Source: an uncultured virus (IMG/VR IMGVR_UViG_3300031234_000003) (lineage: Duplodnaviria; Heunggongvirae; Uroviricota; Caudoviricetes). From it: a stretch of DNA of 20,000 nt. The translations under genes and the position numbers were made by a program. Below the pieces are notes generated by a model. The model was not told the origin of the DNA. It saw only the letters and a program-made list of their open reading frames with translations, and made no database searches. The DNA lies in the IMG/VR virus record IMGVR_UViG_3300031234_000003; one strand, written 5' to 3'. Below, one piece after another: positions 128-16,537 of this stretch. Position 1 is the first letter of the stretch. The number at the start of each line of letters is the position of its first letter.

Positions 128-457
128 TTACCCCTTTGAGGGATCAGGTGCCGCAGCGGTAGCCGTTGCCGTGTTGGTATTCGCGTTCGAGTTGTTCACG
201 TTCACGTCTACCGTTGGAGCGGGCGTTGTAGGATCAGGCCACTTCTGGTAAACCAAGGCGTGACCGCCGAGGAACCCGTAGAAGGCGTACAGCGAACTCA
301 CGTACCCCGGCAGCAAATCCTTGCCAGTGTGGAAACAGTACGCCGAGGTTGTCGCGAAGACGACGAGGGCAATCGGCACGTGCGAGTCATTCGTCAGCTT
401 GTCGAGAAAGCCCTTCAGCCTGTCGCGATGTTCCTTGAGAATCTCTGCAAAGCCCAT
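128..457 (-). CDS. Small membrane protein with two hydrophobic segments and a low-complexity N/T/A tail; possibly holin-like
   Basis: Start reassigned to ATG 455-457, which has AGGGGA upstream. Hydrophobic stretches VPIALVVFATTSAYCF and YVSSLYAFYGFLGGHALVY. The holin call rests only on size and topology. Confidence 0.65.
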   Translation of the reverse strand: MGFAEILKEHRDRLKGFLDKLTNDSHVPIALVVFATTSAYCFHTGKDLLPGYVSSLYAFYGFLGGHALVYQKWPDPTTPAPTVDVNVNNSNANTNTATATAAAPDPSKG

Positions 458-467
458 AAAATCATCC

Positions 468-488
468 CCTATGAAAGAGCCCGAAAGT
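468..488 (-). promoter_or_regulatory. Copy 1 of the RCTT-N6-TCT-N4-TRRG upstream motif (candidate phage-specific promoter)
   Basis: Minus strand reads ACTT TCGGGC TCT TTCA TAGG, ending 10 nt before ATG 457. Same spacing as the copies at 12565-12585 and 15042-15062. Confidence 0.45.
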
Positions 489-594
489 CGTGGGAAATTC
501 TTGTCAAGCAAAAAATGTCGCGTTGAAATCACGAGACTTGTTCGTCCGTAAGTGGCTCAAACGCCACGTTTTAAGCCTGTTTCCAAAACTCGAA

Positions 595-627: not shown

Positions 628-933
628 ATGACCAAGATTAGCGAGCGCAAGACACGGCTGAGCTTCGAGACGGATGCCGAGATGCGGGGGTGGGGTAGCA
701 TCACCGTAGACAAGGAGAAGCGGAAGACACGACGTGTCCCCGTGACTCGGGCAATCATCGTGGACGTGGACAACGCATTCCACGGCACCGTGCGGTTGAA
801 GGGTACGCGGCAGACCTTCGACTTCTCGTGGGAGGGCTTGTTCCTGTGGGCGGTCGAGCAGAAGGTTATGAAGGAGCGTGCGGAGAAGAAGCGGCTGCGT
901 GACGCTAAGAAGAAAGGACGGTTTGTGCGGTGA
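628..933 (+). CDS. Small basic hypothetical protein (101 aa)
   Basis: ATG 628 has a strong SD and a promoter (the track's 490 start is unlikely). K/R-rich. Its 3' end overlaps the convergent giant ORF by 29 nt (905-933). Confidence 0.8.
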   Translation: MTKISERKTRLSFETDAEMRGWGSITVDKEKRKTRRVPVTRAIIVDVDNAFHGTVRLKGTRQTFDFSWEGLFLWAVEQKVMKERAEKKRLRDAKKKGRFVR

Positions 934-1285
934 CCTCAATGGGGGCGTTGTAGACAACGCTCCCATAAATTCTCAGGCTGTCTTGCCACGTACCCTTGCA
1001 GTTCTGCCATTCCTCATACAACTCATCTTCACTACGACCAAGCGTGTAGGTCAGAGGCTCAGCAACCGAGTTCTGGTCGGCCTCCAGCAACGCGGGGTTG
1101 AATGCACTGAGTGGTAACTTGATAACCTTGTATTCTTCCTCGGGTCCAATCTCTTCGGCAGCGGTCTCAGCGTAATACTCGGCGATCTCAGCGGTGCCCC
1201 ACCAGCTAGGCTCAGGCAGTACGCCGCCAGCACTCATGGCTCGATTGTAGTCCGTCATGCTCATGCCGTGGTAAAGGAACCCATC
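905..1285 (-). other. Segment 26 (aa 3758-3883): H-type ART-like module, paralog of segment 1
   Basis: DGFLYHG...SWWG...LPLSAFN...TWQDSLRIYGSVVY. Confidence 0.65.
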
Positions 1286-4200
1286 AGCCGCAGCGGTCAC
1301 ATAGCTTCGGGCTGGCTGTGCGTTGGGCGGGGTTGCTTCCTTCGCGTTGCAGGTATTCATCACAAACCACTCGGACTGCATACCCGGATAGTTGCTTTCA
1401 TCGGGGTGCGTTCGATTACGCCAAAGAACGATATCCTCCAGAGCGATACCTTGAATCTTGCCCACGGTCTGCCACACGATGCCCCGATGTCCGCCCGAGA
1501 ATCCCTTGGCGGTGTCGTAAGCTGCCGACCAAGACAACAGGTCTCGAAGATGTGGCTCCCACTTGGCGGGCTCGCGGTCGTCGCCCATGCGAATCTCTTC
1601 CCCACGATAGAGGCACTTTCGAGTAGTCGGCGGTACGAATGGCGTGAGTGATTTGACCAACTCAACCACTCGACCGGATGCCGCTGGGTTGTCCTCAAAG
1701 GCGTCGGCACACTGCACGTATTGACCGAAGTAGCCGTACAGCGCATCGTCCATGGCGATAGTGTAGCAAACCTTGTCGTACTTGCTACGAGGAAGATCGG
1801 CAGCGGTCACGGATCGGCCTAACGCTGGGAGTTCGACCTGAGCCTTGGGCTTGAGGCGGACTTCCTTCTCTTCGGGGAGAGTGACCCATGCCCTGAAGGT
1901 GTTAAGCCAGTCCACAGCGTTCGCTTTGATCTTACCCTCGAAGACCTCGATGCGGTGTTGATCGGGGTAGTCGATGTACTTATCTTCCGCAAAGTTCTCG
2001 GCAAACTTCCTATCCAAAGACCATGACCAACCGAAGGTGCTGTAGTCAATGTCATGACGCTCGTTGAAAACAGCCATGCCGCGATACACCGTGAGCGGGA
2101 ACTTTTGGGATTTCCAGAACGCCAACGCCTGATCGTACCAGCGTTTGCTTTCCTCGTCGCTGCCAAACATGAATTCGTCATCAGCCAAGGTGGATTCGTC
2201 CATCACCTGCTCGAAGGTTGGGAAGGCTGCCCCGAACTTCTCACCGGGCTTCCTGCCCTCGGTAGGGACGTAATCGTACTTGTGCATACCCGTGATCTTG
2301 ACCTTACCCAGATCGGCTGTAGGTACGAAGAACCCATCCTCCTTCTGGTCGGTGGTGATTGCCACGCCTTCGGGAACCTGTACTTCAATGATTGCCATCT
2401 GAGGTATTTGCTTCTTGTTTTCTTCCCACGAATTCTCTGGCTGCATGTTGCGTGTGAAGAGTTGACCCTCAGCGTAGGCGGCGTAAGCCTCGGAGTATTT
2501 CAAATCGTCGTAAAAGTAGATGCCGTCGCGTCCCTGCGGAGCGTAGTAGTTCTTCCACATACCTTGATCCACGGGCTTGAAGCCGTGAGCTTTGATGTCT
2601 TTGGCAATAGGCACTGTCGTGACGTGATAGAGCTTGAGGGCTCGGGCTGGTGTGGCTGCGGTCAACGCCTTTGCTTTACCGCCGCCGATCCTAATCTGGT
2701 CGGCTGAAAACACGCAATAGCTATACTTGCCGTTGTACTCATCCACCATGGTGCTGTCGTAGCCGCGTTCCTTCATGCGGTTGACGGCTTCCTGATTGTC
2801 CAAAATGTTCCAATCGAGGCCGTTCTGCTTCACAATCTCGTTGAGCCAGTTGCCTTCTGGGTCTACATCGATGGCAAAGGCTCCCAGTTCAATCGTCTTG
2901 ACGGAATTGCCTTGCAAGTCGGAATAGCCGTCACTCATACATAGCTCGCAGATGTAAGTCAGGTCGGCGATCTGTTTCTTGCTCAGATTGTATTGATCTT
3001 CTTGCCGAATCAGTGGCTTCTTCATCTTCAAGTAGCAGGTCATGACGTTTGAGCCGAACTCTTTCGCTTCCTCAGGGTCATCGGTGAAGAAGAACCCACC
3101 AGCTTGTACCTTAATCTCGGAGAAGAGAATGTATCGGGTGCCGGGTTTCTGCTCGAACTTGTCGAATTTCTTATCGGTGCCGTGATACACAGGACCCACT
3201 TCACCGCGAGCAGCGAGCTTTCGGGAGACTTTCCCCCGTGGCTCCTCGTAATCTCGTAGGTCCACGACCTTGCACTTGAGCAAGATGCCGAGCTTCATGG
3301 CGGCGTTTGCGCGGTGGTTGCCGTCGTACAGCCAATCGCCTTCGGTGGTGCGGCACACGAGGGGGTACAACTGCTCCGTGTCACTCAGCCCGACATTGCT
3401 GTGCGGCTTGGTGATCTCCTCGGGGTTGTCCAAGAAATACTGGAGGTCTTTCCGCTTGAGGGTCGCCTGATTCGTCTTCAGATCGGCTGGATGTAATTCT
3501 TCAAGTTGAGCTTCCTCGATCAAACGGTCACGCTCAAACAGACGCATGTGGCGGAAAGTCTCCATCACATCGGGACGTTCGGGGAAGACCTGAAGCATGT
3601 TCGGCATATCCCCGTCGTCGTCCGAAGCCGTCTTGGGCTTACCGAGAAGCTGCTCGATCTTCTTGCCGTCGCTCTTGAACAAACTGATGAGTCCCGGGTG
3701 GAAATCGCTGGCGTTATCCTTCACCATCTCCTGAATATCTACCCACGTGAACCATTCTAGACCCGTGGTTTCCCAGTGATGTTCGGACTGCGGGGCGAAG
3801 CGGAACTCCGTACCCACGGTGCCGAGGAAGTTGTGATAGGAAAAGCCGCCCTTTGAAAATACGTAAGCTGGGTGCATGGTGATGCCGCCCGTGAAGCCCG
3901 TCTCTTCCGTTAGTTCGGCCTTGGCACTGTCCGCGAGGCTCATCTTTGGCTTGACCGCTCCACCGATGGTGCCCCAGCAATTGCCGATGTGAACATCGGG
4001 TGACCGCCACGCGAGACAGATGCGACCAGTGGTGGTGCAGATCGGCAGCACGCCAGACGCGGCGTTACCCTCGCCCGCCCAGAAGCCCTCATTATTGAAT
4101 CCTTCGGCGATCTTCATCGACGCCGTTGCACCTTGAGCCTTCGCCCCAACGAAGTCTATGTCGCGGGCATAGACGTTATGGTCGGTGCCGCCCTTCGCCC

Positions 4201-7200
4201 ACTTGATCTCGTAGAACTTGTCAGCCCCACCGTGATACTGTTGTGCCACATCAGGCGGAATGCTGCGGATGTTCTTGATGACACCCTTCATCCCATCAGC
4301 CTTACGAGTGACCTTGGAGCCGATGTCACCCGGCTTAGACATGGCAGCGTCCACTTCATAGATGTGGCTCGCGTCAAACACACAAATCTGATCGCCGTCG
4401 AGCAGCTTGTACATGCCCTTGCCCTTGAACCATACGGCGTCAAACTGAGCCTTCAGGTGCTCGGTCATCGGCTTGGTCGCTTCCACGCGATTCTTCTTGG
4501 CGAGGTCCGCGTTGTAGCCCTGACTGATCCACCATTTCATCATGGTCTTCGGCACTCCGAAGTTGATGGTCTCCAGCCGTGGCACGTCGAGGTAGTAGGT
4601 CTTCATGCCCCGCGTGGTGCCGCCTGCGAACTGCTTGGCGATAGCCTTGGCGGTCGTGAAGTACACGCCGTAACCCAGATGGTGCACGGGGGCTGGGATG
4701 CCGTCATGGTAGGGTTGGTTACCTTCGTAACCGTGGGCAACGTCGCCCGATCCCGCGTCCCCGATGTAGACCTTGAAGCCCTCGTTCCCGATGTTCTCCT
4801 GCTTCTCCTCGGTGGTGCCATGGTAGACAGGGCCGAACATCTTGCGGTCAACGGCGTCCTGCTGGCTAATGCGGTTCATGGCGGCGAGCTTTGCCACGCC
4901 TGCCAGCTTCTTCATGAAGATGCCTGCGGTGCTGCTGTCGAACCATCGTGGCGGCGGGTCGATCACGTAGGGCTGGAACCCCAGACTGTTGTAGAAGGAG
5001 CTTAATTCCTTCCCAGAGAGCCCTGTGAGCGAATGAGCGAGCAAGAAGCACACTTGGGCACCCTGAGCCTTCGCTGCGTCGAGCACAGCCCCTACAAGCG
5101 CCCTGCCGAGCCCATTACGACGTGTCGCGACCTTGACGCTTACGGTGCCCAAAACGAAGGCTTTGTCGTAAATTCCAGCCCCACCTTTGGGTAAAGTGCT
5201 CCAATCAAACCACTTAACCAGCCCCTCGCGGTCTTCCATGGTGCCGGAAGCACTTCCATCGACGTGTTTGGCGGTAATTCGCCCGTCTGGTGCCGTGGTG
5301 ATCTTGATTTCTTCCTCAAACCCAGCCGTCTTGACGATCCGCCCACCATCGAAATACTTGATGGCGGTGATGTTCTGCCGAGAGATATCGCCCTCAATGC
5401 GACGGTACATGTCGCCTTCCTCGAAATGCTCCGGGTCAGGCTCGCTCTTGCCGTAATCCCAGATGAACTCGATCACGGCGTACTGGTCGCTGTCCGTCAC
5501 ACTCGCACCGTATTCCTTCGCCGCGAACTCCGCGATGGCGCACCAGATGTATTTCTTGCCGCCTGTCAGACGGTTGTCGCTCGCTTTCAGACCTTCCTTG
5601 TCGATCAGTTGAGCGGCCTGCCACGAGGTTCCGTGGTAGAAGACCTGAGGATCGTCTTCGTGAGCCGATGCCGCCACGCCCTTAGCCTTGGGCTGACCCT
5701 TGCGTGCGTCCACCACTTCATACTTGCTGCCGTACTTTGTATTCCACTGGCTGAAGAAATCCTGCGGGATGGTGCCCCAGTGTAGAAGCATTCGAACTGG
5801 CGATGGGGTTGCCCGCACTTCAAGGTCCCGAACTTCTACGAGAGCGAGAATGTGGTTTGACCCGCTGAAGCCAATCGGCTCATTGATGCGGGAGGTGTTA
5901 ATGTTGTATGTCTGGCTTCCTTCAGTGTTCGGACGGGCTAGGAGCCGCAATGTACGGGTGACCTTCTCTGCCGCTTCGCGGAACGCCGCCTCTCCCTCGG
6001 ACGCATCGGGGAGTATGGTGTTCATGTCGGGGCGTTGTTTCTCCTTAGGGGTGCCGTAGAAGACTTGATCCCATGCCCGAATGTAGGAGTAGTTGTCCTT
6101 GACGTGACCCGCCGCACGGGTGACGGCACCTAGCCACACGCTGGGTAGGAGCTTCTCAAGCTCAGCCTTCAGTTCGGGATGGAATGGCATCTTACGTTCA
6201 GCGAACTTGGCTTCCCATTGCGTGAAACACTTGCGGACGTAATCTTCCCGCATCACCCTGATCTCATCCTGCCAGTCTTGGGTTGCGCCTTCCTGTGTAG
6301 CTGCCAAGTAGTAGCAGAGAACGTGGAAGGTGTTATCGCTCATGTGCTTGATTGGAGCACCGAGAACCCCCGTAACGTTGTCCTCGTCAAGGTACATGGT
6401 GTTCGGCTGAAGCTCCATGATAACCACGAGCGAGCCGCCGCGAGCCTTTCTATCCTCGGTATCGGGGGCTCCCGCAGCCGTCATGAGGTTCTGTGACACG
6501 TAAATGCCGCCGTAAGATTGACGGCTGGGTGCGGATATCCCAGCATCAGGATCGTCTGCCCAAACCTTTTCCGTACCTTCAGGAACTAACCCCTGACTCA
6601 TGATGCTTCGCAGATTCTTGATGCTGGTGCCGTGATACCAGATGGACTTCGGTGCGGCGGTCTTGACTTGACGCACGACCTTGAGCGGTCCCATGTGAGC
6701 GGCCTTGCCACTGAGTTCGATGATTGCACGAGCGAGCTTGGGGTCATTCTTGACGATGTAGTCGGTCAGATACTTCATCTGCTCCGCAAGCTCTGCCGAG
6801 CCCTCGAACTCGATCTCGCCCCATGCTTTCCACGCTTCCTCGAAGTTTTTGTAGACCGGGAACTTCTCGGGCTCATTGTAGGAAGCATTCTCGTCATTCC
6901 ATTGCTTGAGCCACAAAGCCTTAACTCGCTTGGCTTGGGCGGAACCCTTGGCGTTCAACTCACCACCACGGTCATTGAGGAGTTCGTAAACATCGTCCTC
7001 ATCGGGCAGGAGCTTACTGATGTCAGGAGCGGCTACCTCAAGCACGGGTCCGCCGCGCTCGATAGCGTACTGGTTTGCTACGTCGAACTCTGCGATGTAT
7101 ACCGCCCCGTCACGCGGGATGTCGATGTCGTAGGTGGTCTCCTGATCTGGGCGTAGGTAACCATCCCCCATGATAATCTCGGCATTTTTCGTGGACGTGC

Positions 7201-10200
7201 CGTGATACCACTTCTTCGGCATGGCGGCGGTCACACCGATTGCTTTCGACTCCGCTGGGATCGATAGGGCGTAGTGGGGATATGTCTTTTTGAACAGGTC
7301 TACCACGTCGTTAGGTATCAACTCGTTTGTGGGGGTTGCCAAGGTCACGGTTTTCTGATCCACGTCGATCACCGCGTAGCCCCGTAGTACCTCTTCGTAC
7401 TTCCGCCCAGAGGACATGCCCTCACCCATAGTTCTCGCTATCAGTGTTGCATGAGGGCCTATGCTTCCCTTCTGCGAGAACGCGCCATAGTCAGGGTGGT
7501 AAATCCACTTTTCATTCCGCTTCTCATTCAGGCTGCCGATCTTACTCTTGAACACCTTGAAGTGGTCCGCAGGTAGTGGCTTTGTCAGTACAACCGTGCC
7601 GGGGAATGCCTTCTCGCTAAAGTTCAATTCTCTCTCAATGGTGTCCTCAGTGCCGTCCTCAGGATCAACTTCGAGATACGACATCGGGATGTTACGGACC
7701 TCAAGGATGGTGTCGCACCCCTTCTCATTGGCGAACCACTGAGCATTCTCAGGGAAGTTCGTGAGATAGAGGTACTGCGGCTGTCCAGCGTTCCCGCCCG
7801 ATGAGACTTGATTCGGCCCCCAGCCGTTCTTCATGATGGCTTCAGCGTTCTCGGGGCAGGTGCCATGGTACAGCGTAGGCGCTGTGGTGCCTGCATACTT
7901 GACAAACTGCTTCGGTTCCCAGTAAAGCTTCCAGTGGTCTTCGTACTTGCCGCTCAGTTCGCACAACGACTCACCCGGCTTCTCAACCTTGAGGACGGTG
8001 GTCTCTGCGACAGGCATCTTGTCGAACGTGAAGTAAACCTTCTCGTTCATCAGGACTGGCGGACGGCTTCGGAATGCCCAGAACTCCAGATTGTGCGCGG
8101 GCGGCTCGTCCCAGAAATGACCACGGGTTTCTTTCGGCACTTCGATGAAGAACGCAAACTTGGCGATATCTGACGATTTTCTGACGATACCTGACGATAA
8201 CGACCAGTGGGGTTTACGGGGTTCCAACTTCATAATCACGGCTGGAATAGTCGTTTTGCCCATCTTCTTAGCCGCACGGGTGCGGTGATGCCCCTCTTCC
8301 AAGTAGTATTTCCCCGGCTGGTCTTCGTACTCATCTACGAGGATGGCTTCGAACCACTTCTCCGCTTCCATCTGCGTGTGAATCTCGTCCACACGTCTGT
8401 CAGTTGTCCATTGCTCGCCCTGCGTTTCCACCACATCGGCGACGTTGATGAATTTCTGCTCGATTCCCTTCAGTTTCCGAACGAACGATGCGGGCAGCAT
8501 GTGTTCCTTGACTGGATCGGCACTGAAATCAATGTTCCAGCCCTGCCACTCACCTACACCCTGCTCAGACTTGTACTGTACGTTGGCTCGGTTGGGATTA
8601 AACATTCCCATCTTTGCCGACGCAGCGTCCTTACTGGCTTTGAGGCCGTTCTTTAGGATATCGTCGAGGTTCTCCGCTGCCGTGCCGTGGTAGAACTTCG
8701 GCATCTTCCGTGCGGCTTCCTTCTCATCGGAGAACAACGGCGGGTCGAACATCAGAGGGAAGTCCTGTCCGCCGATGCCCTTCTGACCACGCAAAGGCAG
8801 GTTCTTGGATTCGTCGCCGTATGCCATGACCCTTTTCTGAGCGGGCTTCTTATAGCCTTGCCCGTAATCGATACCAATCAATTGAAGCTCAGCGCCCGAC
8901 TCAATTGTGATCTCATTTTCATCTTCGTTGAGCATGTTAGCAAGAAGAGTCGCGTCCCAGTCCACATCGGTTGAGCGTAGTACCTTGGCTTTGAGGATCA
9001 AGGTTTGAGGATGTTTCGGGTGCGGACCACCTTGATCCCACATTGACCCCGAGCCAAAGTACGCATCGGCACTGTTCTCAACCCACGTCCAATAGACGCC
9101 CGCCTTTTCCAAATTCGGTTGCGTGCCCTGCTCAACTTGAACCGCACGATAGATCGTGATGGGGAAGTCCACTGTGCTGAAGTGGGCGACATTCTCGTCG
9201 TAGCGGTACTCAGCCTCGTTGAAATCGTCTGGCTGGTACATCGGATTCGCGTCACACCAGTTGTCGAACGGCATGGGCTTGAAGTTCTGCGCTGCCGCAC
9301 GGACTGTGCGAAGGTTCTTTGGCGGATTCTTCCACGCCTTCTCACCTTTGTATTTGTAGCCCGTGATCTGGATTTCTTCACCCGGATGAATGTTGATCTC
9401 CCGCTCATCGGCTGCCACGAGGTTCACGTAGGCAGTGCGAATCCAGTCGATCTGCTTGGGCGAACTCACGACGCCACGCAGGATTACGATGTGCGGGTGC
9501 CCAGCAGCGAGTTCTTCGTGCACATAGGCGTTATTCTCGTCGTAGGACCAATAGATGCCAGTCCCCTTCTCCGCGTATTGACCCTTGTTGATTTCCTTAA
9601 GGCTCACCGAGCCCAGCCCACGGTAAACCGTGAGGGGGAACTTCAGGGATTGAAGGCGATTCATAGTGATTTCCCATGTCGCCCCGAGCCACTCCCAGCC
9701 GATCTTGTCGAGCCACACTTCCTGCTCAGCCTCGGGCATCTTCTCCCAATCCTTGCCTTCGGCTTTCGCACGTCCAGCGGCTTCGGACCTGATCTTATCC
9801 CAATCGCCCTGTGCCTCGCTGAGGCTACCACCCCAAGCAACCACGTCCTGTAAATCAAGATCGTACACGCTGCCCGCTCCCGTCTTGAACAGGTCGGGTG
9901 AAAGCGATTCAAGCGACGGCAGGTCTTCCACACCCATCACACGCTCGGGGATGTCGGCGTAAGCATTCGTCTCCTCGCCCATCTCGGGATTCCTGTACTG
10001 CGTGTCGCTCATCGGCGGCGTCTTGTGGGATGCTGACTTTCGCGGCTTACCGAAAGGTACTCGAACCTGACCACCACCCTTCGTACTCAGGGTGATGCTG
10101 TCCACTTGGAAGGAAATGCCCTCGGCCCAATCCATTCCCTCATATTTGGCGGCAGCGTCAGGCTTGACGTAGGCAAGGGTCACGTGCGGTACGTAGGGAA

Positions 10201-12556
10201 AATCATCTTTGCGGGTGCCCATCGCTTCTGCGACCTTGTTGTGGAGAGCCTCAAGTTCGGGAGCGTGACACTGAACCACGATGGGGGCTTGGGCGTCAGA
10301 GCTTTCGCTCACGGAGAATACGTGCGTCTTCCCTAGCGTGACCGTAAACGGTTGCTGCTCGCCTACAACTTGACTCAACAGAGCGGGGTCGGGCTTTACC
10401 CCGTACTTAACTGTGATGTGTGGATCGTCCTCACGACCATCCTTGCCGAGTTCCTCATCTGGAATCTGCTTGGCGGCTTCCATCATCCCGGAGGCGGCAT
10501 CAGGCGGCAGGTTGATTTGAGACGTGGCGTTTTTGTGGGGACCTGACTTGGCTTTCTTTGCTGCCTCAATGTCGGCTTCATCCTGAGCGGCGGAACAACC
10601 GAACTTCGCCATCGGAGCATTCGCCCAAAGGTCCTGAATTTTCTGCTCCTGCTCTGGGGTGCGGGGCAGATTCCATCCGCCGTATTGTTTGATACGCCCA
10701 CGCCCACGAGTAAACACGTGGTCGTTCGTTTTGACCAGCTTGAATTCTCCCGAAGTCCAATCGAGTCCATCGAGGTACGCCATAGCCTGACGGCTGAGCC
10801 CCAGCGCCCATTGCCAGCCCAAACGTTGCTTGTGCCGACCGTAGACGTAGTTATTGAGCAGGAGCCAGTATTCTTTCGTTGGCTCATCGCTGATGACACT
10901 CTGATCGGAGAACTCGGTCACGAAGTCCGCTCCGTACTTCGCATTGAAGCGAGCGGCGACGGCCTGCCATTCTTTGCCGTGTCCCTCGGGTGCGAGTAGC
11001 TTTTTGTATTTGTTGTAGGCGTCGAACCCGACTTCCATGAGTTTCGGCTTCCCAATAAGCAGAGCCACTTCATGATGACACAGTTCGTGAGCGATAGTAC
11101 GGCGAAGCGATTCCTCGTGCCCCAGTATGGACTTCTGAATGCCGATTGTGGTGTTGTCCGCACCCCAAGTGTTACCCGCCTCATCCCTACCCCGTTCCCA
11201 CACATCGTACCCCAGCATACGGTTGGTCTGGTTTACGATCTTGACTTCGGGATGCGGGAGCCCGGAAGCGAGCACGCCCATCATTTCGTTAATGATGTTC
11301 TTGACCTGACCGATATCGGCGGCGGTTTTCTGTGCCGCAACCTTGGGATTCATGATGCCCATTATCATCAGTTCCCCGCCGTAGACCGAGGCAACCTGCT
11401 CAAAGTCGTTGCGTTCGTACCACTCCACCAAATTGAAGCCTTGGGCTTGTTCCTCAGCGGTGTCGGCAACCAACAGACAGATGCCCGCACCGCGATCCCC
11501 GGCTTCTCGCAAGAACTCGGCAAGCAGATAGTCCCCGTAGCCCTTGCCACGGGAATCCTCGTATACGTTGATGTTGTTTAGAACGGCGAAGGTGTCATAC
11601 TTCTTCCGCAGGTCGGCAACAAACTCTTTGTTCGTGTAGCCGAAACGGTCGAGCCAATTCTGGAGTTGTTCCGCATTGGTGTCCGCTGTGTACCCTTCTG
11701 CGGAACCCTGATCTTCCGAGATGTTGATTTCCCGTACCGAAGAGGATGCCAGTTTGCTGAACGTCTCGATTTGGCTCTGCGGCACCATGATTTGAACCTT
11801 TGGGTAACCCTGATCGCGGAGCACGGAGAAGCGGTGCCGACCGTTGGTGAAATGCGCCTCACCACCCGCATTGTCGCTCCACGACACAATAGGAGCCTCA
11901 ACTGGGGTGTTGGGGTTGTCCTGCCGCCACTGGGTAAAGCGAGCGTAGCGGTCGCCGATGTGATTGGTTTTATCCCCCGGAGCGAGGTACAGGTGTTTGT
12001 CCTTCGACCACTCGCGATCTAACTTTTGCGTATCAACCCAAACTAGCTCGTAGTCTTCGAGCTTCCTATCCGATGGTTGGGTGAACTTAAGCGGCGGCAA
12101 CTCGGTTGCGGTCTTGCTCGCCATAACCTGCCGACCTTCGATAGCATCGGCTGGTGTGACGGGCATATCCTCATCGTACATGACCGCTCCCCAAATCTTC
12201 AGCGAATCCATCCACGTCTTCTTGCTCGCCTTCCACGCACGATTCGTGGCGTTCATTTTCTTCTGATCGTAATCCCCGTTCTCGTCTTCCATGAAATACG
12301 GGTCTTGAATCATGTTCTCGTCAGGGAGTAGAAAGGCTTCGTTGAACCTGCTAACGGGCAGCCGTAACATGGCCCCGCCCTCATACATGTCCGCCGTCTC
12401 CCTCACGCCCCAATAGCTGTGCCCCTCCACCTTCCCTTCGGTCAGGATGGACTTGAGGTCTCGTAACGTGGTGCCGTGATAGAGAAAGCCGTCTGTCTCA
12501 AAGAATGAGGTCGTGGTCGCGGGCTGTTTGGCTATCTTCCGAAGCAATGGGTTCAT
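905..12556 (-). CDS. Giant multidomain effector (polyvalent-type) protein, 3883 aa, about 26 linker-delimited segments including 14 ART-like modules
   Basis: Uninterrupted 11.65-kb ORF with AGGA 7 nt upstream of the ATG. Repeated YHGT and YR[GA]..W[ST]..ExE motifs, plus HELCH, HxT/HxT, G[RHN]HR, GNAT and Nudix motifs. Confidence 0.95.
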   Translation of the reverse strand: MNPLLRKIAKQPATTTSFFETDGFLYHGTTLRDLKSILTEGKVEGHSYWGVRETADMYEGGAMLRLPVSRFNEAFLLPDENMIQDPYFMEDENGDYDQKKMNATNRAWKASKKTWMDSLKIWGAVMYDEDMPVTPADAIEGRQVMASKTATELPPLKFTQPSDRKLEDYELVWVDTQKLDREWSKDKHLYLAPGDKTNHIGDRYARFTQWRQDNPNTPVEAPIVSWSDNAGGEAHFTNGRHRFSVLRDQGYPKVQIMVPQSQIETFSKLASSSVREINISEDQGSAEGYTADTNAEQLQNWLDRFGYTNKEFVADLRKKYDTFAVLNNINVYEDSRGKGYGDYLLAEFLREAGDRGAGICLLVADTAEEQAQGFNLVEWYERNDFEQVASVYGGELMIMGIMNPKVAAQKTAADIGQVKNIINEMMGVLASGLPHPEVKIVNQTNRMLGYDVWERGRDEAGNTWGADNTTIGIQKSILGHEESLRRTIAHELCHHEVALLIGKPKLMEVGFDAYNKYKKLLAPEGHGKEWQAVAARFNAKYGADFVTEFSDQSVISDEPTKEYWLLLNNYVYGRHKQRLGWQWALGLSRQAMAYLDGLDWTSGEFKLVKTNDHVFTRGRGRIKQYGGWNLPRTPEQEQKIQDLWANAPMAKFGCSAAQDEADIEAAKKAKSGPHKNATSQINLPPDAASGMMEAAKQIPDEELGKDGREDDPHITVKYGVKPDPALLSQVVGEQQPFTVTLGKTHVFSVSESSDAQAPIVVQCHAPELEALHNKVAEAMGTRKDDFPYVPHVTLAYVKPDAAAKYEGMDWAEGISFQVDSITLSTKGGGQVRVPFGKPRKSASHKTPPMSDTQYRNPEMGEETNAYADIPERVMGVEDLPSLESLSPDLFKTGAGSVYDLDLQDVVAWGGSLSEAQGDWDKIRSEAAGRAKAEGKDWEKMPEAEQEVWLDKIGWEWLGATWEITMNRLQSLKFPLTVYRGLGSVSLKEINKGQYAEKGTGIYWSYDENNAYVHEELAAGHPHIVILRGVVSSPKQIDWIRTAYVNLVAADEREINIHPGEEIQITGYKYKGEKAWKNPPKNLRTVRAAAQNFKPMPFDNWCDANPMYQPDDFNEAEYRYDENVAHFSTVDFPITIYRAVQVEQGTQPNLEKAGVYWTWVENSADAYFGSGSMWDQGGPHPKHPQTLILKAKVLRSTDVDWDATLLANMLNEDENEITIESGAELQLIGIDYGQGYKKPAQKRVMAYGDESKNLPLRGQKGIGGQDFPLMFDPPLFSDEKEAARKMPKFYHGTAAENLDDILKNGLKASKDAASAKMGMFNPNRANVQYKSEQGVGEWQGWNIDFSADPVKEHMLPASFVRKLKGIEQKFINVADVVETQGEQWTTDRRVDEIHTQMEAEKWFEAILVDEYEDQPGKYYLEEGHHRTRAAKKMGKTTIPAVIMKLEPRKPHWSLSSGIVRKSSDIAKFAFFIEVPKETRGHFWDEPPAHNLEFWAFRSRPPVLMNEKVYFTFDKMPVAETTVLKVEKPGESLCELSGKYEDHWKLYWEPKQFVKYAGTTAPTLYHGTCPENAEAIMKNGWGPNQVSSGGNAGQPQYLYLTNFPENAQWFANEKGCDTILEVRNIPMSYLEVDPEDGTEDTIERELNFSEKAFPGTVVLTKPLPADHFKVFKSKIGSLNEKRNEKWIYHPDYGAFSQKGSIGPHATLIARTMGEGMSSGRKYEEVLRGYAVIDVDQKTVTLATPTNELIPNDVVDLFKKTYPHYALSIPAESKAIGVTAAMPKKWYHGTSTKNAEIIMGDGYLRPDQETTYDIDIPRDGAVYIAEFDVANQYAIERGGPVLEVAAPDISKLLPDEDDVYELLNDRGGELNAKGSAQAKRVKALWLKQWNDENASYNEPEKFPVYKNFEEAWKAWGEIEFEGSAELAEQMKYLTDYIVKNDPKLARAIIELSGKAAHMGPLKVVRQVKTAAPKSIWYHGTSIKNLRSIMSQGLVPEGTEKVWADDPDAGISAPSRQSYGGIYVSQNLMTAAGAPDTEDRKARGGSLVVIMELQPNTMYLDEDNVTGVLGAPIKHMSDNTFHVLCYYLAATQEGATQDWQDEIRVMREDYVRKCFTQWEAKFAERKMPFHPELKAELEKLLPSVWLGAVTRAAGHVKDNYSYIRAWDQVFYGTPKEKQRPDMNTILPDASEGEAAFREAAEKVTRTLRLLARPNTEGSQTYNINTSRINEPIGFSGSNHILALVEVRDLEVRATPSPVRMLLHWGTIPQDFFSQWNTKYGSKYEVVDARKGQPKAKGVAASAHEDDPQVFYHGTSWQAAQLIDKEGLKASDNRLTGGKKYIWCAIAEFAAKEYGASVTDSDQYAVIEFIWDYGKSEPDPEHFEEGDMYRRIEGDISRQNITAIKYFDGGRIVKTAGFEEEIKITTAPDGRITAKHVDGSASGTMEDREGLVKWFDWSTLPKGGAGIYDKAFVLGTVSVKVATRRNGLGRALVGAVLDAAKAQGAQVCFLLAHSLTGLSGKELSSFYNSLGFQPYVIDPPPRWFDSSTAGIFMKKLAGVAKLAAMNRISQQDAVDRKMFGPVYHGTTEEKQENIGNEGFKVYIGDAGSGDVAHGYEGNQPYHDGIPAPVHHLGYGVYFTTAKAIAKQFAGGTTRGMKTYYLDVPRLETINFGVPKTMMKWWISQGYNADLAKKNRVEATKPMTEHLKAQFDAVWFKGKGMYKLLDGDQICVFDASHIYEVDAAMSKPGDIGSKVTRKADGMKGVIKNIRSIPPDVAQQYHGGADKFYEIKWAKGGTDHNVYARDIDFVGAKAQGATASMKIAEGFNNEGFWAGEGNAASGVLPICTTTGRICLAWRSPDVHIGNCWGTIGGAVKPKMSLADSAKAELTEETGFTGGITMHPAYVFSKGGFSYHNFLGTVGTEFRFAPQSEHHWETTGLEWFTWVDIQEMVKDNASDFHPGLISLFKSDGKKIEQLLGKPKTASDDDGDMPNMLQVFPERPDVMETFRHMRLFERDRLIEEAQLEELHPADLKTNQATLKRKDLQYFLDNPEEITKPHSNVGLSDTEQLYPLVCRTTEGDWLYDGNHRANAAMKLGILLKCKVVDLRDYEEPRGKVSRKLAARGEVGPVYHGTDKKFDKFEQKPGTRYILFSEIKVQAGGFFFTDDPEEAKEFGSNVMTCYLKMKKPLIRQEDQYNLSKKQIADLTYICELCMSDGYSDLQGNSVKTIELGAFAIDVDPEGNWLNEIVKQNGLDWNILDNQEAVNRMKERGYDSTMVDEYNGKYSYCVFSADQIRIGGGKAKALTAATPARALKLYHVTTVPIAKDIKAHGFKPVDQGMWKNYYAPQGRDGIYFYDDLKYSEAYAAYAEGQLFTRNMQPENSWEENKKQIPQMAIIEVQVPEGVAITTDQKEDGFFVPTADLGKVKITGMHKYDYVPTEGRKPGEKFGAAFPTFEQVMDESTLADDEFMFGSDEESKRWYDQALAFWKSQKFPLTVYRGMAVFNERHDIDYSTFGWSWSLDRKFAENFAEDKYIDYPDQHRIEVFEGKIKANAVDWLNTFRAWVTLPEEKEVRLKPKAQVELPALGRSVTAADLPRSKYDKVCYTIAMDDALYGYFGQYVQCADAFEDNPAASGRVVELVKSLTPFVPPTTRKCLYRGEEIRMGDDREPAKWEPHLRDLLSWSAAYDTAKGFSGGHRGIVWQTVGKIQGIALEDIVLWRNRTHPDESNYPGMQSEWFVMNTCNAKEATPPNAQPARSYVTAAADGFLYHGMSMTDYNRAMSAGGVLPEPSWWGTAEIAEYYAETAAEEIGPEEEYKVIKLPLSAFNPALLEADQNSVAEPLTYTLGRSEDELYEEWQNCKGTWQDSLRIYGSVVYNAPIEVTAQTVLSS
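1286..1798 (-). other. Segment 25 (aa 3587-3757): R-S-E type ART-like module with a QxE motif
   Basis: LYRGE...LSWSAAYDTAKGF...QSEWFV (QSE at 1370-1378); ends in YVTAAA. Confidence 0.7.
1799..2224 (-). other. Segment 24 (aa 3445-3586): R-S-E type ART-like module, paralog of segments 7 and 8
   Basis: FPLTVYRG...GWSWSLDRKFAENFA...VDW...EEKEVRL; ends in SVTAA. Confidence 0.75.
2225..2653 (-). other. Segment 23 (aa 3302-3444): H-type ART-like module
   Basis: LYHVTTVPIAKDIKAHGFKP...GIYFYDD...AYA...IIEVQVP; ends in EKFGAA. Confidence 0.7.
2654..3208 (-). other. Segment 22 (aa 3117-3301): ART-PolyVal-like module
   Basis: VYHGTDKKFDKF...GFFFTDDPEEAKEFG..VMTCYLKMKKP...GYDS...YCVFSADQI, the pattern typical of ARTs in polyvalent proteins; ends in ALTAA. 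Confidence 0.8.
3209..3625 (-). other. Segment 21 (aa 2978-3116): ParB/Srx-like module
   Basis: LKTNQATL...PLVCR...WLYDGNHRANAAMKLG; ends in RKLAA. Confidence 0.8.
3626..4105 (-). other. Segment 20 (aa 2818-2977): Nudix-fold module with a degenerate Nudix box
   Basis: ASGVL...TGRICLAWRS...WGTIGG AVKPK M SLADSAK AELTEETGF ... ETTGLEWF ... FHPGL; ends in PKTA. Confidence 0.85.
4106..4879 (-). other. Segment 19 (aa 2560-2817): ART-PolyVal-like module plus a C-terminal SH3/KOW-like barrel
   Basis: VYHGT...GYGVYFT...AKQFA...FDAVWF...QICVFDASHI, then IGSKVTRKADGMKGVI...YEIKW (about 4148-4330); ends in MKIA. Confidence 0.7.
4880..5323 (-). other. Segment 18 (aa 2412-2559): GNAT acetyltransferase module
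   Basis: VSVKVATRRNGLGRALV...LSSFYNSLGF; ends in KKLAGVAKLAA. Confidence 0.8.
5324..5662 (-). other. Segment 17 (aa 2299-2411): H-type ART-like module
   Basis: FYHGTSWQAAQLIDKEGLK...YIW...AKEYG...VIEF...GDISRQNI; ends in VKTA. Confidence 0.75.
5663..6652 (-). other. Segment 16 (aa 1969-2298): H-type ART-like module with a long extension
   Basis: WYHGTSIKNLRSIMSQGLVP...GGIYVS...YLDED, followed by about 240 aa with no motif I recognise; ends in GVAASA. Confidence 0.7.
6653..7222 (-). other. Segment 15 (aa 1779-1968): H-type ART-like module with a helical insertion
   Basis: WYHGTSTKNAEIIMGDG...AVYIA...ANQYA...VLEV...LLPDED; ends in VKTAA. Confidence 0.7.
7535..7891 (-). other. Segment 13 (aa 1556-1674): H-type ART-like module
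   Basis: LYHGTCPENAEAIMKNGW...YLYLT...AQWFA...ILEV; ends in SKIG. Confidence 0.75.
7892..8152 (-). other. Segment 12 (aa 1469-1555): small beta-rich module, possibly ASCH/PUA/EVE-like
   Basis: EFWAFRSRPPVLMNEKVYFTFDKMPVAETTVLKV resembles the ASCH/PUA strand pattern; weak, by eye. Confidence 0.35.
8153..8605 (-). other. Segment 11 (aa 1318-1468): ParB/Srx-like module
   Basis: EAILVD...YYLEEGHHRTRAAKKMGKTTIPAVI; ends in AKFA. Confidence 0.8.
8606..8710 (-). other. Segment 10 (aa 1283-1317): truncated H-type ART remnant, 35 aa
   Basis: KFYHGTAAENLDDILKNGLKAS, then directly the AKMG linker; the rest of the fold is missing. Confidence 0.65.
8822..9289 (-). other. Segment 8 (aa 1090-1245): R-S-E type ART-like module, paralog of segment 7
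   Basis: FPITIYRA...GVYWT...VDW...DENEI; ends in RVMA. Confidence 0.7.
9290..9877 (-). other. Segment 7 (aa 894-1089): R-S-E type ART-like module
   Basis: FPLTVYRG...GIYWS...DEREI; ends in VRAAA. Confidence 0.7.
10031..10597 (-). other. Segment 5 (aa 654-842): 2H phosphoesterase module
   Basis: Two HxT motifs, PHITVKYG (10409-10420) and PHVTLAY (10175-10186), 78 aa apart; ends in RKSA. Confidence 0.85.
10598..11317 (-). other. Segment 4 (aa 414-653): SprT-like zincin metallopeptidase module
   Basis: TIAHELCH (HExxH at 11075-11089) followed by GHGKEW, as in SprT family proteins; ends in AKFG. Confidence 0.8.
11318..11746 (-). other. Segment 3 (aa 271-413): GNAT acetyltransferase module
   Basis: INVYEDSRGKGYGDYLL (acetyl-CoA motif A, RGxGxG) and LVEWYERNDF; ends in QKTAA. 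Confidence 0.8.
11747..12106 (-). other. Segment 2 (aa 151-270): ParB/Sulfiredoxin-like module
   Basis: APIV...FTNGRHRFSVLRDQG matches the ParB/Srx (D/N)GxHR motif; ends in SKLA. Confidence 0.7.
12107..12556 (-). other. Giant protein segment 1 (aa 1-150): H-type ART-like module, paralogous to the last module
   Basis: DGFLYHGT...SILTEG...SYWG; ends in SKTA. Confidence 0.65.
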
Positions 12557-12585: not shown

Positions 12586-13128
12586 TCAACGGCGGGACTT
12601 CTTCTTTTTCGCCAGTTTATAGCCCCTTTTGAGGGCTCGTTTGACCGACCTTGAGGGCGGTGTATCGCGGCGAATTGCGATGAGCGGGGTCACAGTAGGC
12701 CAGTATTCAACGCGGACGACCTTGCGGTTCAGGGGCTTTTGAGTCTTGGTTTCCTCATCAAGATAGGTAGTTTGGATGGCACAGATACCCATCATCACGT
12801 CTTGAGAATCCTGCGACTGCTCACAGTCAACTTCGCTGAACTGGGCGTCGTTGGCGTTCGGGTGGGTGTGAATGGTGCCGAGGTAAGTCAACCCGATCTC
12901 GGCTGCGTCCTCTTCATGTTCATCGATCTCGTAATCCTCGTACCGAAGGGTGCGTTTTCCGGGCTTGTGATCGACCTTCACAAAGGCATGAATGTAGAGG
13001 ATATCGCTGCGTACTTTGCCCCACAGGGCTTCCATGTATTCCAATGGGTAATGATTCAGGGCTCGGCGACGGAACTTCGCCTCCTCCTTCTTATCGACCA
13101 CAATGCGGGTGAAGGGTGCGACTGCCAT
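12586..13128 (-). CDS. JAB/MPN (JAMM) domain metalloprotease
   Basis: N-terminal glutamate in YPLEYMEALWG and LGTIHTHPNANDAQFSEVD (HxH-x8-S-x2-D, about 12826-12870). Basic C-terminal tail. Starts 6 nt after the stop of the upstream gene. Confidence 0.85.
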   Translation of the reverse strand: MAVAPFTRIVVDKKEEAKFRRRALNHYPLEYMEALWGKVRSDILYIHAFVKVDHKPGKRTLRYEDYEIDEHEEDAAEIGLTYLGTIHTHPNANDAQFSEVDCEQSQDSQDVMMGICAIQTTYLDEETKTQKPLNRKVVRVEYWPTVTPLIAIRRDTPPSRSVKRALKRGYKLAKKKKSRR

Positions 13129-15062: not shown

Positions 15063-15301
15063 GGGGAGTTTAGGCTGGCATTGGTTATCAGAAATTTTTT
15101 CCGCATAGATTGTGACGGAACTTGGGTATTACAAAAATGTGGGAGACTGCACTCAAAACACGGCAGGCCAGCTCGCCCCCATCGGCATCGGCGCTATCAT
15201 TTACAAGTGGCTCCGCACTGGCTCTACGCTGTCCCTACGCTGGCGCACCATTTTTGCAACTACGTGTTGCTTAGATGAGTCTCTTCTCGGAGGAAATGTT
15301 C

Positions 15302-16537
15302 TTGGCTAAGAAAAAAGATTCGAAGAAAGTCTCAAAGCAAACCCTCATCGCTGAAGCCCAGCGCCTAGCAACTCAAACAGACGAACTCACACGTGATTTT
15401 TTCCGTAACAAGAGTGAGTTCAAGGACGGCTGGAACATTTACTGGCCGACCTTCCAAGCCTTTCTCGCCGAAGCAAAAGTAGTCTCCAAGATCGCCAAGC
15501 CGTCACCCGACAAACAGGTCGAACTTGAGATCGAGAAAGTCCGCGACCGCAAGACCAATCTGAAAGCCAAATACGAAGCGGCTATTCACCGCGCCGAACG
15601 CGCCGAGGAAACCCTGTCGGTATTGCAGGACCTCCGCACCAAAACACCGCAGCATCTCAGCATCCTGCCGAAGGTTGTTACTGGCACCAGCGAATCAGTC
15701 GCAGTGTGGGCGGCAAGCGATTGGCACATCGAAGAAAAGGTCGATTACGCCGATGTCGAAGGTCGCAACTACTTCGATCTGAATACCGCGCATCACCGCA
15801 TTGAGATGTACTGGCAGAACATGATGCGCCTGACGGACATCATGCAGAAGGACACCAACATTCCCGTCGTCTTTCTGGCTCTGCTGGGCGATTTCATCAC
15901 CAACACCATTCACCCCGACGTGGCTGAAAGCAATCAGCTTGGTCCGGGCGATGCGATCTGGTGGGTGCAGGAGCGCCTTGTCAGCGGCATGAAGTTCGCC
16001 CTTGACAACCTCAGCAAGAACACGGTCCTCAAGGTCGCCTGTCACACGGGCAACCACGGTCGCAGCACACCGAAACAGCGCCAGAAGACTGAGCCTTCAA
16101 ACTCGTGGGAGCGGTTGATGTACCGCGAAATGAAGATGATCTTTGACGGCGACTCGAAGTACGGCAAGCGCGTCGAGTGGTGCATTGCTGACGGTTACCA
16201 CAGCACGCACGACCTGTTCAATGGAGCCTTCAAGCTTCGTACTCACCACGGCCACGCCATCGGTTACGGCGGCGGCGTTGGCGGCATCACGATTCCTGTC
16301 AACAAGAAGATCGCCAACTGGAACATCAACAACCCGAGAACTCCAAACCTCGATTTGTTCGGTCACTTTCACCAGTACATTGATAGCGGAACGTTCGTCA
16401 CAAACGGCAGCTTGATCGGCTACAACGCCTTTGCTAACACCATCGGCGCAGCGTTCGAGAAGCCCACACAGGCGTTCTTCCTCATCAACAAGAAGTTCAA
16501 CTCGAAGACAATGGCAACGCCAATTTTCCTCGACTAA
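15302..16537 (+). CDS. Calcineurin-like metallophosphoesterase with an N-terminal coiled-coil region
   Basis: All five motifs present: SDWH, LGDF, GNHG, HHGH, GHFH. Start placed at TTG 15302, 8 nt after GGAGG (15289-15293); the track start 15275 is an alternative. Confidence 0.88.
   Translation: MAKKKDSKKVSKQTLIAEAQRLATQTDELTRDFFRNKSEFKDGWNIYWPTFQAFLAEAKVVSKIAKPSPDKQVELEIEKVRDRKTNLKAKYEAAIHRAERAEETLSVLQDLRTKTPQHLSILPKVVTGTSESVAVWAASDWHIEEKVDYADVEGRNYFDLNTAHHRIEMYWQNMMRLTDIMQKDTNIPVVFLALLGDFITNTIHPDVAESNQLGPGDAIWWVQERLVSGMKFALDNLSKNTVLKVACHTGNHGRSTPKQRQKTEPSNSWERLMYREMKMIFDGDSKYGKRVEWCIADGYHSTHDLFNGAFKLRTHHGHAIGYGGGVGGITIPVNKKIANWNINNPRTPNLDLFGHFHQYIDSGTFVTNGSLIGYNAFANTIGAAFEKPTQAFFLINKKFNSKTMATPIFLD

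Follow-up and report, generated by a model that had tools for sequence, protein, structure and literature searches.

Polyvalent proteins, as described by Iyer, Burroughs, Anand, de Souza and Aravind in 2017, join 2 to 15 domains in a single chain and are predicted to be packaged into the capsid (PMC5512222). Release of the domains by a peptidase was likewise predicted and likened to the processing of RNA-virus polyproteins, with either an embedded MPTase (metallopeptidase) domain or C-terminal assemblin-like peptidases proposed as the cutter; the idea of peptidase release is thus already in print (PMC5512222). The subject of this report is P0001, a 3883-aa polyvalent effector protein encoded in a 20,000-nucleotide stretch (the window) of IMG/VR virus record IMGVR_UViG_3300031234_000003, which comes from an uncultured soil jumbo phage that has the acidobacterial phage Tunturi_5 among its relatives. 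Its modules meet at a recurring short peptide, and sequence comparisons lead us to favor, with a probability of about 0.6, the reading that P0001 is packaged in the head and cut at K-x-A by the phage prohead protease.

Several head-maturation systems provide points of comparison. The T4 protease gp21 cuts after Glu in (L/I)-x-E, and packaged T4 proteins carry a capsid targeting sequence, the substrates including Alt and the internal proteins IPI-III; the cut motif of phage SPN3US also ends in Glu (A/S/G-x-E). One of the packaged T4 substrates, Alt, is an ADP-ribosyltransferase (ART) (PMC5512222). In jumbo phages, the head proteases phiKZ gp175 and SPN3US gp245 recognize a short motif and cut numerous proteins of the head and of ejection there; gp245 cleaves off its own C-terminal propeptide, and long propeptides are cut at several sites (PMC10052503, PMC5694885). 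Among the measured SPN3US cuts, 13 of 14 remove N-terminal propeptides and the fourteenth removes the C-terminal one of the protease itself, and preferences at P4 and P1' of the motif are given as well (PMC10052503). The herpesvirus assemblin has release (R) and maturation (M) sites that are cut after Ala, with Ser or Thr next, as in YLQA-T and VQA-S of pseudorabies virus (PMC4498786).

The polyvalent chain and its module borders

The window is part of a record of 85,753 bp (G000) with a CheckV completeness of 45%. P0001 is encoded at window positions 905-12556 on the minus strand as one open frame of about 26 modules, the frame and translation bearing out the preliminary description of this DNA. 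The start codon is an ATG five codons downstream of a stop, and the protein begins MNPLLRKIA. A phage origin of the terminase/portal type is indicated by the large terminase subunit (TerL) on the same record and by a capsid protein, a protease and a sheath protein on an overlapping record, G001 (186 kb), which is 99.985% identical to the window's record over 65,967 bp and continues for 120 kb beyond it. Among cultured phages the closest is Tunturi_5, a 309-kb acidobacterial myovirus whose TerL is 41.6% identical over 94% of the length.

Pfam searches of P0001 returned at least eight distinct domain types, namely ART-PolyVal (E = 1.1e-18), Tpt1/KptA, PARP, a 2H phosphoesterase (LigT/Acb1-like), two GNAT domains, NUDIX, a SprT-like zincin and ParB_N, the last below the Pfam cut-off only. 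When the modules were searched one by one, every match fell inside a single segment of the preliminary description. Module 4 is the SprT-like zincin and carries HELCHH. An ART-type motif, [LFWV]YH[GV][TM], stands near the start of 10 of the 26 modules (YHGT-type positions at residues 25, 1288, 1562, 1783, 1973, 2306, 2577, 3123, 3309 and 3761), and ten ART-like units in one chain is an unusual number. Like published polyvalent proteins, P0001 joins ART-PolyVal, GNAT, NUDIX, ParB-like, 2H and zincin MPTase domains, with InPase in a neighboring gene; unlike them, it has about 26 modules rather than 2 to 15 domains (PMC5512222).

All 25 junction strings listed in the preliminary description are present in P0001, in the order given there, between residues 147 and 3752, and each occurs once except AKFA, which occurs twice. 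The motif itself had partly been used to place those junctions, so the borders were set anew independently of the motif. Among 5.8 billion proteins searched there were 10 giant homologs of 2243-5480 aa with differing module orders, and a second search added 16 shorter relatives. The ends of 153 BLAST high-scoring segment pairs (HSPs), drawn from 28 relatives that include the giants, the shorter proteins, two open reading frames (ORFs) of the related record G003 and Tunturi_5 gp273, were compared with the junctions against a null of 5000 circular shifts. Within 10 aa of a junction lay 95 of the 153 ends, compared with 20.2 +/- 7.5 after shifting (maximum 46), and 23 of the 25 junctions had at least one such end (8.2 +/- 2.1 after shifting). 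The two junctions outside this limit, at 1243 and 3753, have their nearest ends 13 and 12 aa away, respectively.

The relatives also break at these places. On G003 (455 kb) the locus consists of three consecutive ORFs with a module order different from that of P0001; ORF1, which starts MNPLLQKITAAS, ends exactly at junction 891, and ORF2 starts 9 aa past junction 3298. Four stand-alone homologs of module 13, each 120-128 aa, end 1-6 aa ahead of KIGS, and in both P0004 and P0005 site 891 is fused directly to the module that follows site 1086. Judging from these alignments, the junctions of P0001 are real module borders; the modular chain of the preliminary description stands, and its modules are shuffled independently. 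The individual junctions are as follows (window coordinates; residue number in parentheses; HSP ends counted within 10 aa):

12104..12115, minus strand: KTAT (148); 1 HSP end; G003 ORF1 joins the leader to the following module
11744..11755, minus strand: KLAS (268); 2 HSP ends; strict motif
11318..11329, minus strand: KTAA (410), with KVAA ahead at 405; 1 HSP end; strict motif twice
10595..10606, minus strand: KFGC (651), loose; 1 HSP end
10028..10039, minus strand: KSAS (840); 5 HSP ends; strict motif
9875..9886, minus strand: KTGA (891); G003 ORF1 end; P0004/P0005 fusion to the module after 1086
9290..9301, minus strand: RAAA (1086), degenerate; 4 HSP ends
8819..8830, minus strand: VMAY (1243), weak; 0 HSP ends, nearest 13 aa; outside the family motif
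8711..8722, minus strand: KEAA (1279), loose; 1 HSP end; borders a 36-aa segment
8603..8614, minus strand: KMGM (1315); 8 HSP ends; about 1800 aa absent just ahead relative to P0002
8150..8161, minus strand: KFAF (1466); 2 HSP ends; a confident AlphaFold2 block begins 2-3 aa later
7889..7900, minus strand: KYAG (1553); 8 HSP ends; stand-alone homologs of the next module begin here
7532..7543, minus strand: KIGS (1672); 10 HSP ends; four stand-alone homologs end 1-6 aa ahead
7223..7234, minus strand: VTAA (1775); 2 HSP ends; strict motif
6653..6664, minus strand: KTAA (1965); 5 HSP ends; strict motif
5666..5677, minus strand: VAAS (2294); 5 HSP ends
5321..5332, minus strand: KTAG (2409); 2 HSP ends; strict motif
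4880..4891, minus strand: KLAA (2556); 2 HSP ends; strict motif
4103..4114, minus strand: KIAE (2815), ahead of the NUDIX module; 15 HSP ends
3623..3634, minus strand: KTAS (2975); 7 HSP ends; strict motif
3209..3220, minus strand: KLAA (3113); 5 HSP ends; strict motif
2654..2665, minus strand: LTAA (3298); 4 HSP ends; G003 ORF2 begins 9 aa later
2228..2239, minus strand: KFGA (3440); 2 HSP ends
1799..1810, minus strand: VTAA (3583); 1 HSP end; strict motif
1289..1300, minus strand: VTAA (3753); nearest HSP end 12 aa; strict motif; last module paralogous to module 1

At site 2815 the homologs read KTAE, KLAE, KFAA, KIAR or KIAD, and Tunturi_5 reads KVAR. Two of the P0001 "modules" are mere 36-aa remnants. 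One of them, module 10 (window 8606-8713, residues 1282-1317), is no more than the initial 36 residues of an ART, what remains after a deletion that, compared with P0002, removed about 1800 aa; P0001 thus looks as if it had arisen by deletion from a longer form of 5480 aa. Modules 1 and 26 form one paralog pair, and modules 7 and 8 another.

The junction peptide and the head protease

The form in which the motif was first described, K-x-[AG] or [VL]-x-A, is barely more frequent in the whole protein than chance would have it, even though every string cited for it is there. Measured against 300 shuffles of P0001, loose K-x-[AG] occurs 54 times (47.5 +/- 5.8 shuffled; reached by 43 of 300), loose [VL]-x-A 56 times (44.4 shuffled), and the two pooled 110 times (90.7 +/- 7.8; reached by 4 of 300). 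Tighter versions behave differently: [KV]TA[AG] is found 6 times where 0.4 are expected and K[TLFMIY][AG] 27 times where 13.2 are expected, in neither case matched by any of the 300 shuffles. The strict motif has 14 matches, 13 of them at a junction and one 5 aa upstream of a junction in a double site. The preliminary description had cautioned that its motif also occurs inside domains; no strict match (0 of 14) lies within any P0001 module.

Enrichment at borders was measured around motif-blind block ends, defined in P0001 and its relatives as ends common to at least two partners and taken with 12 aa of surroundings. Near the block ends of P0001, K[TLFIMVY][AG] is 4.4-fold enriched (12 in 511 aa, compared with 18 in 3372 aa), and KTA is 8.8-fold enriched when 11 proteins are pooled, so that for this tight core the expected concentration at independently placed borders is indeed found. 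Control patterns built on E, on R or on the reversed motif gave no enrichment. A candidate site accompanies 137 of 207 borders, and many of the remaining 70 carry degenerate forms such as LTAA, HTAS and RAAA. Across 96 non-redundant junctions, positions that had played no part in selection show T after the Lys in 49 and A or S after the Ala in 56, from which the family motif can be written K-T-A-[A/S]. The codons at the 25 joints vary as they do in the gene as a whole (AAG and AAA; ACC and ACG; all four GCN) and spell no conserved DNA word. This synonymous variation points to conservation of the motif as peptide and not as DNA, and led us to reject a DNA-level recombination word. No junction motif is given in the available text of PMC5512222, in which the word "linker" occurs 0 times.

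The preliminary description suggested looking for a prohead protease in the rest of the genome, and one is present on G001. The head module there comprises an acidic 551-aa protein, a head-maturation protease (PHROG 18299, E = 6e-15), a scaffold-like 732-aa protein rich in Ala, Pro and Glu, and the major capsid protein (PHROG 2522, E = 2e-44). Sequence searches with the protease gave no Pfam match and no PDB match, its identification coming from PHROG and a fold search only. An AlphaFold2 model built from an alignment of 84 homologs (predicted local distance difference test score, pLDDT, 79.9) superimposes on T4 gp21 (5jbl) with a VIA Z score of 11.8 and a root-mean-square deviation of 3.0 A over 147 of 165 residues, at a sequence identity of about 14% (Foldseek E = 1.4e-3, probability 0.99). 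The next-best structural matches are the proteases of varicella-zoster virus (VZV, Z 7.8) and human cytomegalovirus (HCMV, Z 5.8). Candidate catalytic residues include H111 and S169, invariant among the 84 homologs, and H57 and H153, conserved in at least 90%. On the strength of this model the protease has the fold of T4 gp21 and herpesvirus assemblin, and its relatives form 957 representative clusters at E <= 0.001.

Other searches for proteases gave less. Pfam S78 had no match in four related records; S77 had none in G001, G002, G003 or Tunturi_5, and since it also missed all 14 control genomes this result says nothing on absence. A Lon-like Ser/Lys peptidase, for which birnavirus VP4 reportedly offers an analogy, was considered as the cutter and rejected: the "ATP-dependent protease" PHROG match (G000 26214-27416) is an AAA+ ATPase of the ClpX/ClpB type that lacks a peptidase domain. 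The annotation of Tunturi_5 lists an HslV-like peptidase, gp106.

The junction motif recurs in the head module. In the protease it lies behind the core, where residues 243-300 are disordered in the model and otherwise gapped and variable among homologs; the island retained there in the 84 homologs reads K/R (80 of 84), then x (A in 53, V in 15), A (78 of 84) and S (47 of 84). The capsid protein starts MANLSRTQQQTAMLGQLLKTAGGRQKLAAS, its motif-bearing N-terminus being LLKTAGGRQKLAAS, and the segment LLK[TS]A[GA]GRQKLAAS is conserved in G002, G003 and Tunturi_5. Relative to expectations from each protein's own composition, the capsid protein has 2 strict matches (0.2 expected), the scaffold-like protein, which starts MANQTKSKLAAA, has 8 (1.8 expected), and the acidic protein just upstream of the protease has 3 (0.6 expected). 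Two giants near TerL that together match Tunturi_5 gp350 have 7 and 9 (1.4 and 2.7 expected), and a 1968-aa protein has 7 (1.6 expected). Sheath, baseplate and fibre-like proteins (1 match each), a 1300-aa protein (0) and TerL (0) are at expectation. In Tunturi_5 the head- and ejection-type proteins gp328, gp332, gp345, gp348 and gp350 are dense in K-x-A-[AS], with 8 matches in the 530 aa of gp348. Taken together, these occurrences of the motif, at the capsid N-terminus, in the scaffold-like protein and in the linker behind the protease core, point to head maturation as the step at which cutting would take place.

A second feature shared with head proteins is the N-terminus:

12527..12556, minus strand: leader MNPLLR, then the first K-I-A site (residues 1-10); leader common to relatives

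MNPLL[QRL](M)K-x-A stands ahead of differing first modules in five relatives (P0002, P0003, P0004, P0006 and G003 ORF1), and P0172 and P0180 start MNPLLQ with no K-x-A behind it. In 206 kb of phage sequence, MNPL[LF][RQ]K begins three ORFs. One encodes P0001; the other two, which read MNPLF[RQ]K, encode the acidic protein whose gene lies just ahead of that of the protease and a protein of 481 aa. The arrangement is reminiscent of T4, in which a gp21 site stands behind the capsid targeting sequence, and by this analogy the leader may serve as a head-loading signal.

The likeness to T4 thus includes the protease fold (VIA Z 11.8 against 5jbl), a three-residue P3-x-P1 site and, as in packaged T4 substrates, a short N-terminal leader followed by a site. 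The differences are that the site reads K-x-A rather than (L/I)-x-E, and that each T4 substrate loses one propeptide whereas P0001 would be cut about 25 times. SPN3US differs in a similar way, its protease removing propeptides where here a chain of enzymes would be separated. The K-x-A-S island behind the protease core occupies the place equivalent to the self-cleavage site of SPN3US gp245 and to the R-site of assemblin (PMC10052503, PMC4498786). With assemblin the phage protease shares a related fold (VZV Z 7.8, HCMV Z 5.8), Ala followed by Ser at the putative site, and the position of a putative self-cleavage site just behind the protease domain, which in assemblin precedes the scaffold part. 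Unlike the herpesvirus system, P3 is Lys or Arg here instead of hydrophobic residues at P3/P4, protease and scaffold-like protein each have a gene of their own, and the putative substrates include giant multi-enzyme proteins. Likewise, the probable cutter is a separately encoded head protease, in contrast to the embedded or C-terminal peptidases proposed for polyvalent proteins (PMC5512222).

The protease family also reaches into phages in culture. In cluster C mycobacteriophages the homologous protease forms the N-terminus of a 1370-aa protein (gp95 in Bxz1), with NNKTAGY behind the protease core and RTAA sites further on. From these strings, the motif may extend to a cultured model system, the cluster C mycobacteriophages.

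Proposed processing in the head and competing explanations

We infer packaging, cleavage, the exact scissile bond, ejection and the functions of the modules along the following lines. P0001 would be loaded into the prohead, with the MNPLLxK-x-A leader as a possible loading signal, and its K-x-A sites would be cut during head maturation by the phage's own serine protease of the gp21/assemblin fold. In the proposed register P3 is Lys and P1 is Ala or Gly, placing the scissile bond behind the Ala, and the separate enzymes would then leave the head with the DNA. As a speculation, were the scissile bond to follow the second Ala, the pieces would have -LAA or -TAA at their C-termini and so resemble the ssrA degron, the tag read by ClpX. 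Somewhat more doubtfully, K/R-x-A followed by S, A or G might be the cutting rule of this very large gp21/assemblin-fold branch with its 957 clusters, and together with the leader might form a "load and cut" code that lets jumbo phages pack one product of about 430 kDa and release some two dozen enzymes, ten of them ART-like, on injection. In that case the preference for Ala followed by Ser, common to this branch and herpesvirus assemblin, would be an old property of the protease lineage and not a herpesvirus speciality.

A number of observations weigh against processing by the head protease. The strict family motif is met by only 13 of the 25 P0001 junctions; the other 12 (RVMA, EKEAA and AKFG, for example) have a loose form only, K-x-[AG] overall being at chance, and RVMA does not fit the family motif at all. 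The proposal of the preliminary description that a polyprotein is cut, perhaps in head maturation, is thus supported in part, by the modularity, the peptide motif, the motif in head proteins and a protease of the gp21 fold; about half of the junctions have a degenerate form only, and its count of about 24 products is best taken as an upper guess. Around motif-blind block ends the control K-x-[DE] is itself mildly enriched (1.8-fold), and part of the signal may therefore reflect lysine-rich linkers. The 11 homologs are related to one another, so that p-values pooled over them exaggerate the independence of the data. All remaining ORFs, when pooled, have a mild excess of the motif as well (44 matches, 28.9 expected). 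The AlphaFold2 model of residues 1230-2420 has a mean pLDDT of 55.2, with 571 of 1191 residues (48%) below 50; its four confident blocks are each bounded by junctions, and all 10 of its junctions lie in low-confidence stretches or within about 5 aa of them, which is weak support because half of the modelled chain is of low confidence.

Other such points concern the head connection itself. Some 86 kb separate the P0001 gene from the head module, the gene standing amid replication- and repair-type genes, and this reading assigns no role to the conserved JAB peptidase gene beside it. The 481-aa MNPLF protein has the leader and no strict site. In the protease family the N-terminus has the consensus MAFLK[YT]AxA, with K-x-[AG] within the first 10 residues in 85 of 134 members, and in the model this K-x-A is a core beta-strand (pLDDT 84-93); not every K-x-A is therefore a site, and the likeness of this N-terminus to the leader may be coincidence. 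A literature search for a measured K-x-A cut found none, most subscription journals being outside its reach. A predicted complex between the protease core and 40 aa of junction sequence scored 0.00 in both runs and is uninformative either way.

The core strand at the protease N-terminus, where the same tripeptide is structural, also fits the best of the competing explanations, in which the joints stay uncut, K-T-A-[A/S] is a conserved linker or docking element (a handle for scaffold, portal or protease, or a flexible linker) and the protein of about 430 kDa acts intact. There is precedent in the unprocessed delivery of N4 virion RNA polymerase, ArdC and TraC1 (PMC5512222) and in the 42 SPN3US head proteins that stay uncut (PMC10052503). 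We nevertheless consider an uncut chain unlikely. Where four residues are retained while the disordered linker around them varies, as in the protease, the capsid N-terminus and the scaffold, a protease site is a better fit than a spacer; split genes and stand-alone modules show the modules working as separate proteins elsewhere; and the P3-x-P1 layout matches sites of the gp21 family, both in T4 and in SPN3US (for the latter, PMC10052503).

Less probable still is cutting by another peptidase, either the upstream JAB/JAMM protein or the SprT-like zincin embedded in the chain. In 4 of 4 IMG/VR loci the JAB gene is a direct neighbor of the polyvalent gene, in Tunturi_5 it belongs to the cluster, and its JAMM motif is intact. 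Known JAB peptidases act behind a ubiquitin-like fold ending in Gly-Gly, whereas the joints read K-x-A, have no Gly-Gly, and stand behind ART, GNAT, NUDIX and other modules with annotated folds. The zincin has its HELCHH in module 4, and autoprocessing by an MPTase is what has been proposed for polyvalent proteins (PMC5512222), but three relatives with complete N-termini and the junction motif, P0003 (5245 aa), P0180 (1816 aa) and Tunturi_5 gp273 (1489 aa), have no HExxH, which excludes an embedded zincin as the general cutter. Against both candidates stands the presence of the motif in the capsid, scaffold and protease proteins as well, and its retention behind the protease core in 84 homologs.

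Finally, the motif as a trace of gene assembly, a DNA-level recombination signal or gene-fusion scar with no role in the protein, would account for modules being shuffled, inserted and deleted exactly at it (as in the P0004/P0005 joining of 891 to the module after 1086) and for the Met that restarts several modules just behind it, but is very improbable given joint codons that follow gene usage with no conserved DNA word, stand-alone modules and split ORFs without the motif at their ends, its presence in non-mosaic head proteins, and at least one rearrangement (the gap of about 1800 aa relative to P0002) that ends inside a module.

What is new here is the junction motif, how many joints there are, and a connection to a protease branch that is large and unstudied; polyvalent proteins and head-protease processing in T4, phiKZ and SPN3US were known. 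If the head protease does cut the joints, P0001 would be a phage counterpart of the RNA-virus polyprotein, one gene giving rise through a three-residue code to about two dozen host-modifying enzymes, and sequence alone would suffice to predict which cargo many uncultured jumbo phages carry. A protease family with hundreds of members would acquire a cleavage rule, Lys-x-Ala, which would link the specificities of the phage gp21 type and the herpesvirus assemblin type. The question is directly testable, as the Tunturiibacter phage Tunturi_5 is cultured and carries the same cluster, protease (gp331) and motif.

Neighboring genes and genome context

Two genes lie directly upstream of P0001 on the same strand, and the second holds two junction-type sites:

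12586..13128, minus strand: JAB/JAMM metallopeptidase, 180 aa (Pfam Prok-JAB, E = 7.7e-8), directly upstream of P0001
13135..15021, minus strand: InPase + RelA/SpoT protein, 628 aa (Pfam InPase, 2.3e-30; RelA_SpoT, 4.1e-11), same operon
14182-14193: ALTAAG, junction-type site at residue 277 of the 628-aa protein
13459-13470: GKTASL, junction-type site at residue 518 of the 628-aa protein

The JAB protein has an intact E...HxH...SxxD motif and a basic C-terminal tail, and may be a further effector. The same cluster is found in G001, G002, G003, the L009 record and Tunturi_5; in the last it consists of the JAB protein gp271, annotated as "minor tail protein", gp272, and the polyvalent gp273. The 628-aa protein matches PHROGs named minor head or virion structural protein, and its 2 strict matches are not above what its composition gives (0.7 expected; reached by 62 of 400 shuffles). 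A megablast search of the flanking 7.4 kb against cultured phages gave no match.

On the divergent flank are an exonuclease (PHROG 284; 15275-16537, plus strand) and a stand-alone GNAT protein (16561-17004, plus strand), and an exonuclease, gp270, stands beside the cluster in Tunturi_5 as well. Behind P0001 are three small ORFs on its strand, of 134, 220 and 114 aa (window 128-532, minus strand, and G000 27644-28647); the last belongs to DUF6527 and the other two are without a family.

The Tunturi_5 protein annotated as "major head protein", gp90 (L013:23759-24988), was rejected as the capsid counterpart: it has a Walker A sequence (GPPGTGKS), lacks the junction motif and appears AAA+ ATPase-like. 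The true capsid gene of Tunturi_5 is gp334, whose product is 73% identical to the capsid protein of the phage described here. Tunturi_5 gp350 ("DarB-like") has its counterpart at G000 70695-79851 in a pair of neighboring giant ORFs, of 1944 and 1115 aa, which match its N- and C-terminal ends, respectively; the sequence between the matched ends is unrelated, and the pair is enriched in the junction motif. From this arrangement, the two ORFs may be the halves of another modular cargo protein. ORFs of homing-endonuclease type (GIY-YIG, HNH and EndoVII-like) are numerous and scattered over G000 and G001, several of them between structural genes.

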